From: Candidatus Heimdallarchaeota archaeon | Lineage (GTDB): Archaea; Asgardarchaeota; Wukongarchaeia; Wukongarchaeales; JBHIFL01 | DNA: 50,980 bases | Assembly: GCA_046761065.1 (NCBI GenBank) | Contig: JBHIFL010000022.1 | Span: forward strand, 1-50,980 | Reading direction: 5' to 3' | Shown here: in pieces, positions 41,797-42,634 of the stretch | Numbering within the stretch: position 1 is the stretch's first letter | Layout: the number at the start of each line of letters is the position of its first letter | The notes under the pieces: generated by a model | The model's input: the letters and a program-made list of their open reading frames with translations, nothing else | Told to the model about the DNA's origin: nothing | Database searches by the model: none | Program-made: the position numbers and the translations under genes

Positions 41797-42241
41797 CCGT
41801 TCGGAGAATCAGGGATTCAAAGACGTCCATTTAAATACTACTTCTATCTTGTTATTTTACTACGATTCATTAAACTCCAAAGTTTCAAGTATTGGGAGAT
41901 CTTCTCTCTTTGTGTGATTGGAGTGGTCCCCATTCATTGTTGCCAATTATGTTATGTTCCTTCATGACAGAAATACTCCCTCTGCCTTCTAAGATCCATA
42001 CTTTTTGATGCATTCTTAGATTATATTCTTATCTTCTTCACAAGACGGAAGCACATCAAAAAATCTTTGATAATCTTCCCTAAGCAGACTCTTAAAAACA
42101 TGGAAATTACTTGTGTATTACCCAATACTCATTCATATTTCTAGTTAAGATGTTTTGAAAAAGAAGCCAAGAGTCGCAAGATACTAATCAAACACAACAA
42201 ATAAAAAATGAGCGAATGAATCAAAAAATAACAATACCAAT

Positions 42242-42457
42242 GGCCCGGCTGGGGTAGCCGCCCAAGACAAGTAGTTAAGCGGCCAAGTGGTTAACGTAAC
42301 AACGTCTTTAAAACCTGAGGGACTGTGGATCGATGTCTAGGGACATCCTCTAGCTCTCATAACCCTTCCCTTCGGGTAACCCGATAGGAGATTATTCGCC
42401 GCGGGTTCGATAAAGCTCTAGAGTACTAGAATTTCGAAAATCCCGCGCCGGGCCCCA
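42242..42457 (+). tRNA. trnH: tRNA-His(GUG) with encoded G-1 and CCA and five predicted introns
   Basis: G-1/GCCCGGC...GCCGGGC-C73-CCA acceptor; GGGT/ACCT D-stem; AGGGA-CT-GTG-G arm (anticodon 42325-42327); GCGGG/CCCGC T-stem; 140 nt of intervening sequence. Confidence 0.85.
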
Positions 42458-42499: not shown

Positions 42500-42634
42500 G
42501 CCGCCATAGCTCAGTTGGTAGAGCGTCTGGCTGTTAACCCGACGCCGGTTGGTGGCCGGAGACATAAACCAGATGGTCACAGCTCCGCACATTTGGCGTT
42601 GCGACTACAGGTTCGAGTCCTGTTGGCGGCGCCA
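42500..42634 (+). tRNA. trnN: tRNA-Asn(GUU) with two introns (37/38 and 50/51)
   Basis: GCCGCCA/TGGCGGC acceptor plus G-CCA; anticodon GTT at 42533-42535; introns 42537-42567 and 42581-42608. Confidence 0.93.

Follow-up and report, generated by a model that had tools for sequence, protein, structure and literature searches.

Transfer RNA (tRNA) genes broken up by several introns were reportedly described in the Thermoproteales by Sugahara in 2008 and Fujishima in 2010. To our knowledge, the genes of that order carry at most three introns each, whereas the gene that concerns us here appears to carry five, and lies in an Asgard archaeon. It is a tRNA-His gene at positions 42242-42457 on the plus strand of a 50,980-nucleotide (nt) stretch of Candidatus Heimdallarchaeota archaeon DNA (contig JBHIFL010000022.1 of GenBank assembly GCA_046761065.1, positions 1 to 50,980; hereafter the window). 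A preliminary description of this stretch had taken three introns as the known maximum for a tRNA gene, a figure which is outdated, with up to five now found per Asgard tRNA gene (10.64898/2026.10.13.758758). Indeed, three complete Asgard genomes have introns in 92-95% of their tRNA genes, and several in over half of them (PMC11291895), whilst a preprint of October 2026 covering 90 Asgard genomes gives 2.2 intervening sequences per gene in three focal families, with a maximum of five per gene (Goswami et al. 2026; 10.64898/2026.10.13.758758). The classes with a heavy burden named in that preprint are Jordiarchaeia and Atabeyarchaeia, and Wukongarchaeia are unmentioned (10.64898/2026.10.13.758758).

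Our reading, which we hold to be likely, is that the locus is a functional, single-copy tRNA-His(GUG) gene with five introns of the bulge-helix-bulge (BHB) type, situated at tRNA positions 15/16, approximately 20a/21, 39/40, 42/43 and 59/60. Deletion from the 216-nt locus of the five intervals proposed in the preliminary description (42258-42287, 42293-42311, 42329-42344, 42350-42395 and 42412-42440) yields exactly the 76-nt string reported there, which ARAGORN calls a tRNA-His(GTG) whose 7-base-pair (bp) acceptor stem is extended by G-1:C73 and whose CCA is encoded. The sequence is as it had been stated, and the claimed histidine identity elements (G-1:C73, GUG and CCA) are all present in this call; the spliced molecule has the GUG anticodon, the extra G-1 paired with C73 and the resulting 8-bp acceptor stem of a tRNA-His, and G-1:C73 is paired in all four homologous loci considered below. 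The cloverleaf restored by excision matches those of intron-less homologues, both in the ARAGORN call and in an alignment of compact relatives over positions 1-76. An acceptor register with G1 at 42242 was rejected, as it places a C at position 8 and drops the CCA.

It had been anticipated that standard scanners would miss this gene, and they do: ARAGORN finds no tRNA in the whole unspliced window, and the Rfam tRNA model, run on the window with E up to 10, returns only the neighbouring gene at 42500-42631. The minimum-energy fold of the precursor contains the acceptor stem and the motif of intron 5 (z = -3.0). Self-splicing introns were rejected, since the Rfam group I and group II models give no match at the locus with E up to 10 and the inserts are just 19-32 nt long. 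A split or permuted tRNA gene is ruled out, as the six exons are colinear on a single strand within 216 nt.

The claim of a genuine tRNA-His that needs five excisions and leaves micro-exons of 3-5 nt gains comparative support from relatives. Three loci of the same architecture (L055, L056 and L057) emerged from a pattern scan over metagenome contigs of JGI and NCBI, and share 76-89% identity with the window along the gene; all five inserts are kept in each of them, with near-invariant exons, and a tRNA-Asn gene follows downstream in all three, as it does in the window. In the four-way alignment, 59 of the 142 intron columns vary (24/30 in intron 1, 5/19 in intron 2, 10/32 in intron 3, 5/30 in intron 4 and 15/31 in intron 5), versus a single column of the 76 in the exons of our revised model, which is an indel of a D-loop U (Fisher p ~2e-12, a value that overstates independence amongst kin sequences). 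The helices that we propose are paired in 95% of cells, a share that drops to 33-52% if the partners are slid; compensatory double changes affect four pairs, which belong to the inner helices of introns 1, 2, 3 and 5 (one per intron). Judged from these alignments, invariant exons between diverging introns with kept helices form the pattern to be expected of a working split gene, and argue strongly against a pseudogene. Logan contigs from mangrove and sediment metagenomes of three other studies extend over the locus as well, where they are 80-95% identical and have just single-base indels.

Compact relatives lead to the same partition of the locus. When 120 genomes of the phylum were searched by BLAST with the spliced model, tRNA-His genes were found in 28. 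Several of these genes are uninterrupted, and those of G054 and G006 are 87% and 83% identical to the model, respectively, the former over positions 1-76; others match it over part of their length, on account of introns of their own. Relative to the compact tRNA-His genes of G054, G006, G068 and G086, and to the 5' 53 nt of that of G002 (Candidatus Wukongarchaeum yapensis), the window gene has five extra stretches of 19-32 nt, and it falls under the census definition of a heavily interrupted Asgard tRNA gene used in the preprint. The G002 gene is uninterrupted over positions 1-53, has the anticodon arm AGGGA CUGUGGA UCCCU and, once spliced, is identical to the spliced model at 65 of 73 positions. 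Elsewhere in the phylum, tRNA-His introns are found at 15/16 (G016, G026, G036, G074, G097 and G115), at 59/60 (G028 and G111), at 9/10 (G040) and at 53/54 (G002), so that other Asgard archaea share two of the five positions in their own tRNA-His genes. The G002 tRNA-His (L030 / L058, JAEOSI010000011.1) has a single intron of 28 nt, at the T-stem/T-loop border, and no encoded CCA; CCA is encoded in the window gene and its three homologues.

The introns differ in how closely they approach the strict motif (hBHBh'), which we took as a 4-bp central helix, a 3-nt bulge on either side of it (one per strand) with cleavage 3' of its second nucleotide, and flanking helices. Intron 5 (42412-42440; 29 nt), in the T-loop at 59/60, is strict, and was rightly called a textbook BHB: the central helix TTCG/CGAA has four of four pairs, the outer helix, which is the T stem, 6 bp and the inner helix 3 bp. 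It is enclosed by exon 5 (42396-42411), which provides U43, the 4-nt variable loop CGCC, the T-stem 5' strand and the T-loop from U54 to U59, and by exon 6 (42441-42457), which provides U60, the T-stem and acceptor 3' strands, C73 and the encoded CCA. Both exons are invariant and match the spliced model exactly in BLAST, and a variable loop of 4 nt is present in all Asgard tRNA-His genes compared. BLAST of the unspliced locus against 40 relatives found no orthologue, and the only similar T-loop intron lies in a tRNA-Thr of G026. That tRNA-Thr(GGT) gene (L005; G026:C38, ~56560-56760) belongs to another Asgard family and is interrupted at 37/38 and at 59/60; over its T-arm and T-loop intron it shares 77% identity with the T-arm and intron 5 of the window gene, a likeness much of which may be forced by the motif.

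The helices quoted earlier for the remaining introns (CGC/GCG, ACGT/ACGT and GATC/GATT) are all found in the sequence; at the junctions first proposed, introns 1-4 have three of four central pairs and lack one flanking helix. Exon 1 (42242-42257) carries G-1, the acceptor 5' strand, U8-G9, the D-stem 5' strand, A14 and G15; it is invariant in the four loci, an exact BLAST match to the spliced model and part of the ARAGORN call. Intron 1 (42258-42287; 30 nt), in the D-loop at 15/16, has a relaxed HBh' motif. Its central helix GGGT/GCCA has three of four pairs in the window and all four, with (G/A)CCC, in the three relatives, where the window mismatch of G10 opposite A42285 is a G-C pair in each case; the inner stem of 3-7 bp is kept with differing sequences, including one compensatory pair, and there is no outer helix. 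Exon 2, TGGTT (42288-42292), comprises D-loop nucleotides including G18 and G19, and is kept as TGG(T)T between two variable introns. Intron 2 (42293-42311; 19 nt), in the D-loop at about 20a/21, has the weakest motif of the five, likewise relaxed: its borders slide by up to 3 nt, its central helix reaches 2.2-3.0 of 4, its inner helix ACGT/ACGT of 2-4 bp shows a compensatory G-C to U-A change in L055, and its outer helix in L055 and L056 is seen only once intron 1 is removed. For the D arm as a whole, ranking over the four loci returns the junctions of the preliminary description as the best-scoring conserved two-intron solution. Relaxed motifs are cut in A. pernix by an endonuclease that bears the Crenarchaea-specific loop (PMC3241643).

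Within intron 1, positions 42270-42278 read AGTAGTTAA, which differs by one mismatch from AGTGGTTAA, the D-loop-plus-A22 string of the mature tRNA that is assembled from exons 1-3. A counterpart (AGGTAATTAA-like) is present in L057 and missing from L055 and L056; the resemblance may be due to chance or go back to the origin of the intron.

It is in the anticodon arm that our map departs from the earlier one. Taken by itself, the window admits 300 different two-intron solutions with a valid anticodon arm, since the region is rich in pyrimidines and these are all that positions 41-42 require; a parse from a single sequence is therefore under-determined. We ranked the 66 solutions that are valid in all four loci by their motif geometry in all four sequences, using an ad hoc score. 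The top parse ends exon 3 at 42330, places a CCC exon at 42363-42365 and starts exon 5 at 42396, so that intron 3 most likely lies at 39/40 rather than at the canonical 37/38 that had been proposed. Each valid solution needs two excisions in this arm, and with the earlier junctions of the D arm being the best conserved there, the total stays at five introns. The earlier junctions hold for introns 1, 2 and 5 and for the 3' end of intron 4, and fail at both ends of intron 3 and at the 5' end of intron 4.

The former micro-exon ATCCT (42345-42349) is rejected: the segment falls where the region varies most and is not conserved, reading CGCCC in L055 and TGTCT in L056, where the 31:39 pair would break, and it does not occur amongst the 66 solutions. 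An alternative parse in the preliminary description (introns 42331-42353 and 42357-42395) is formally valid, but its GATGTC/GACATC helix is paired in just 70% of cells. Its CTC exon (42354-42356) is further disfavoured because the second intron would have no inner helix, and because the conserved CUAG/CUAG leaves no space for a 3' bulge and central helix.

In the preferred parse, exon 3 (42312-42330) contributes A21, the D-stem 3' strand, G26, the anticodon-stem 5' strand, the loop CUGUGGA and U39; it is invariant in the four loci, and BLAST with the spliced model matches 20 nt exactly, from 42312 to 42331. Whether C40 is taken from 42331 or from 42363, the product is identical. Intron 3 as revised (42331-42362; 32 nt) interrupts the 3' strand of the anticodon stem with an HBh' motif: the central helix GUGG/UCAU is invariant and complete, with two G-U pairs amongst its four, the bulges are AU|C and AA|C, and the 2-bp inner pairing GA/UC is also invariant. 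Further in is a 4-bp helix CUAG/CUAG, one G-C pair of which is replaced by A-U in L055 through a compensatory change; the loop at 42341-42349 is variable. Scanning the genome contigs for the conserved block of intron 3 gave no match. The revised exon 4, CCC (42363-42365), supplies anticodon-stem positions 40-42; it is invariant, sits in an 18-nt invariant block (42351-42368) and gives a stem AGGGA/UCCCU made up of Watson-Crick pairs alone, the same as in G002.

Intron 4 (42366-42395; 30 nt, with a revised 5' end) lies at 42/43, and its full hBHBh' motif forms only after intron 3 has been removed. In the primary transcript its central helix reaches 2.0 of 4, without an outer helix; with intron 3 deleted, the central helix rises to 3.6-4.0 of 4 in all four loci, with an outer and an inner helix of 3 bp each. 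The preliminary description had likewise held that the 42/43 motif is completed only by removal of the upstream intron, and this stands. The central helix, GAUC/GAU(U/C), uses the G37-C40 strand and has nothing but Watson-Crick pairs in L055 and L056; the outer helix joins G34-G36 of the anticodon to C44-C46 of the variable loop, and the inner helix is UCC/GGA. All seven central and outer pairs are 100% paired across the loci, and 42395 varies (T, C or A), which fits a bulge nucleotide. Since the motif of intron 4 depends on the loss of intron 3, the latter is probably spliced out first, and such an order would shield the 3-nt exon from release.

The 42 nt from 42351 to 42392 (the 3' half of intron 3, CCC and most of intron 4) contain just three variable positions across the four loci, whose overall differences amount to 11-24%, a conservation which, as far as the alignment tells, is beyond the obvious need of the proposed helices. 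By eye, introns 3 and 4 show neither the C nor the D box of a C/D-box guide RNA.

The window is contig C22 of a 4.42-megabase (Mb) assembly (G000; 234 contigs, 42% G+C; completeness 91.5%, contamination 8.2%), and the runs that hold its DNA are hydrothermal-vent metagenomes. The source organism is an uncultured Asgard archaeon from the same GTDB order as Candidatus Wukongarchaeum; its place amongst the Asgard archaea follows from its catalytic splicing endonuclease (EndA), nearest to sequences of Baldrarchaeota and Odinarchaeota, and from the presence in the same order of G002, one of only two species genomes there. The 4.4 Mb of this assembly compare with 1.9-2.2 Mb for both same-order genomes, which, together with the contamination, calls for caution with genome-wide counts and with the attribution of both EndA genes to one organism.

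In this genome, a scan anchored on the acceptor stem and T arm gave 42 credible tRNA loci, and only the one in question combines G at -1 and C at 73 with a GUG anticodon. When the spliced model and compact Asgard tRNA-His genes were compared with the 4.4-Mb genome by short-word BLAST, only the exons on C22 were hit, besides generic T-arm matches; at other sites of the genome, a GTG anticodon loop occurs in 34 uninterrupted stem-loops, the flanks of which have no recognisable tRNA context. No other tRNA-His was thus found in the 91.5%-complete assembly, and the organism very probably has no further gene for a histidine tRNA.

Considering the other loci, the tRNA-His gene is the extreme of a genome-wide pattern and not an isolated oddity, because most tRNA loci here carry inserts. 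The Rfam tRNA model finds just 12 tRNAs above threshold in the genome, and of the 42 loci of the anchor scan only three measure 77 nt or less, the remaining 39 being longer (median ~136 nt). Measured from position 1 to 73, the four longest have 281, 256, 227 and 212 nt, the last being tRNA-His; by length, the average gene would hold ~66 nt of insert, or about 2.3 introns. A T-loop insert is present in 26 of the 42, with its best motif at 59/60 in 25 of the 26 and a complete central helix (4/4) in 14. The three loci longer than the tRNA-His gene, all on the minus strand (C125:1245-1525, 281 nt; C5:32469-32724, 256 nt; C28:4174-4400, 227 nt), may hold five or more introns, and 59/60 introns of 27-34 nt occur for example at C1:148950-149125, C5:26249-26413 and C19:47016-47151.

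The neighbouring gene, a tRNA-Asn(GTT) at 42500-42634 (Rfam 55.5 bits), encodes its CCA and is interrupted by two introns. The first, of 31 nt, falls within the anticodon arm at about 42540-42570 (38/39 to 40/41, with sliding borders); the other, of 28 nt, lies at the border of variable loop and T-stem, with its best motif at 42581-42608 and a central helix of 4/4. The ends of compact tRNA-Asn contigs from other organisms (…AACC, AGATGGTC and ACAGGTTCGAG in succession) agree with these exon joins, and both introns are kept in L055 and L056 with differing sequences. BHB checks on the two tRNA-Asn introns found relaxed motifs only, and were of no help in fixing the 39/40 site of tRNA-His.

Would the cell be equipped to process such a transcript? 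The preliminary description had called for an endonuclease of broad specificity, and one is predicted from the genome, in the form of an alpha subunit with the lysines of the crenarchaeal loop and a beta-like paralogue. Two EndA genes (PF01974 and PF02778 matches) lie on contigs C15 (7589-8104) and C2 (24654-25142). The alpha protein, of 195 amino acids, has the catalytic alpha subunit of A. pernix as its best PDB match (3P1Z; E = 7e-41) and retains all three catalytic motifs (Tyr, His and Lys). Their alignment has no gap in the Crenarchaea-specific loop, where lysines of the Asgard protein stand opposite K44 and R46. This loop, and K44 especially, gives EndA a broad specificity that includes D-loop and bulge-helix-loop introns (PMC3241643). 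The paralogue, of 214 amino acids, keeps the Tyr and Lys positions and has no catalytic His, like a structural beta subunit. Such a pair of predicted proteins fits an (alpha-beta)2 enzyme, the arrangement reported for most Asgard genomes (10.64898/2026.10.13.758758, section 2.6). A gene for the ligase RtcB is found on C14 (533 bits).

From the gene structure and these enzymes we infer, on sequence grounds, how transcription and cleavage might proceed, in which order the introns would leave and where exactly the anticodon-arm junctions fall. A precursor of ~216 nt would be transcribed, probably from a conserved A/T-rich box, AACAA-ATAAAAAA (42196-42210, plus strand), a candidate archaeal TATA element about 32-46 nt 5' of G-1; most A positions of this box are invariant in the four loci, and its upstream surroundings are just 72% conserved. 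The (alpha-beta)2 EndA would then cut the five BHB-type motifs, leaving TGGTT and CCC as the micro-exons of our intron map, and RtcB would rejoin the exons into a 76-nt tRNA with encoded G-1, C73 and CCA. Removal of intron 3 would come first and complete the motif of intron 4, which could then be excised, and loss of intron 1 would improve the motif of intron 2 in two of the relatives.

Several points weigh against this reading and are best considered together. In the primary transcript, introns 1-4 fall short of the strict motif (3/4 central pairs, with outer or inner helix missing); none of the runs listed for the window DNA is an RNA run; the four loci are kin to each other, so that our statistics overstate their independence; a second tRNA-His may lie on DNA missing from an assembly that is 91.5% complete and 8.2% contaminated; and, given this contamination, the two EndA genes may stem from different organisms. 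For the anticodon arm, as many as 66 two-intron solutions stay valid in all four loci, and the lead of the top parse on the ad hoc score is modest (15.0 versus 14.0). It is indeed conceivable, albeit unlikely, that the same functional five-intron gene is spliced at other junctions in this arm, since any pyrimidine pair suits positions 41-42 and there are accordingly many valid solutions. The runner-up in the ranking combines a 37/38 intron (42329-42364) with 42370-42395, leaving a micro-exon CTTCC (C38 and stem UUCCU); it uses the canonical site with the anticodon stem as a 4-7 bp outer helix, and C38 is found in some Asgard tRNA-His genes, but it brings one or two G-U pairs into the anticodon stem and a central helix of just 2.6 of 4, whereas the stem of the preferred parse is Watson-Crick throughout, as in G002 of the same order. 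A further example is a variant of the earlier parse (…GGATC + 42348-42349 + 42396…), although the exact micro-exon first proposed loses its 31:39 pair in two of the relatives.

That the gene is a decaying or silent pseudogene, with a working tRNA-His on unassembled DNA, strikes us as very improbable. The gaps in an assembly of 234 contigs, the relaxed state of four of the five motifs and the lack of a listed RNA run would all be in its favour; however, a decaying gene sits poorly with exons that are invariant across four loci whilst the introns diverge with compensatory changes in their helices, with the conserved A/T box upstream, with 4.4 Mb devoid of any other tRNA-His-like sequence and with a genome whose other tRNA genes are mostly built alike. 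We give still less credence to fewer than five excisions, whether by retention of inserts as expansions or through another cloverleaf with two or three introns. A minimum-intron search does produce cloverleaf-like solutions with two or three excisions upstream of the T arm, but their stems are mismatched or built of G-U and A-U pairs only, a non-histidine anticodon, AGG, sits behind the G-1:C73 acceptor, they score 6.0 versus ~13.5 for real arms, and they disregard segments that are invariant in relatives. These parses were rejected for their low-quality arms, and show that parsimony alone is misleading here.

What, then, does the functional five-intron gene add? With invariant exons of 3 and 5 nt lodged between diverging introns, it is among the most fragmented tRNA genes with comparative support at the level of the gene, and if it is the sole tRNA-His gene, all histidine codons of the organism depend on five successful splicing events. 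Of interest are its conserved exon of 3 nt, the order of splicing which its structure would impose and a lineage not previously described as intron-rich; indeed, our results suggest that the heavy-interruption phenotype reaches a lineage near Wukongarchaeum, whose own tRNA-His has one intron. We posit, tentatively and as something a little short of probable, that the lineage of the Wukongarchaeum order is a further, possibly independent, Asgard hot spot of tRNA-intron accumulation, in which the only tRNA-His needs an obligatorily ordered, five-step splicing, its 3-nt exon surviving since the downstream motif awaits removal of the upstream intron and religation. The gene also offers a substrate for two Asgard questions: are relaxed D-arm and stem introns really spliced, and are multi-intron precursors processed in a fixed order? 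For annotation, 300 valid solutions for one arm mean that parsing such genes from a single sequence is unreliable.

Amongst known systems, the nuclear tRNAs of Cyanidioschyzon merolae likewise combine D-, anticodon- and T-arm introns with BHB-like motifs in one gene (PMC3728597, PMC9602550), but they belong to a eukaryote, have up to three introns per gene and are in part permuted, whereas the six exons here are colinear. The multi-intron tRNAs of Thermoproteales are also spliced by proteins, at non-canonical positions, with relaxed HBh'/hBH motifs and an (alpha-beta)2 EndA that has the crenarchaeal loop (PMC4090602). The A. pernix (alpha-beta)2 enzyme (PDB 3P1Z; PMC3241643) has this loop and the catalytic motifs in common with the Asgard alpha subunit, which we know as a predicted protein. 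Closest of all are the interrupted tRNAs of other Asgard archaea (PMC11291895; 10.64898/2026.10.13.758758): these come from the same phylum, with nearly all tRNA genes interrupted, many non-canonical D- and T-arm introns missed by scanners and two EndA paralogues fitting (alpha-beta)2 as here, and in all of them splicing is predicted from genes. The window genome differs from those of the preprint in belonging to the Wukongarchaeum order, in which the tRNA-His of G002 has a single intron. The locus is a member of the reported Asgard range of interrupted tRNAs, at its upper end, and not a novel class of gene; its additions to that literature are a map of one gene supported by covariation, a micro-exon of 3 nt and a motif contingent on the prior removal of a neighbouring intron.

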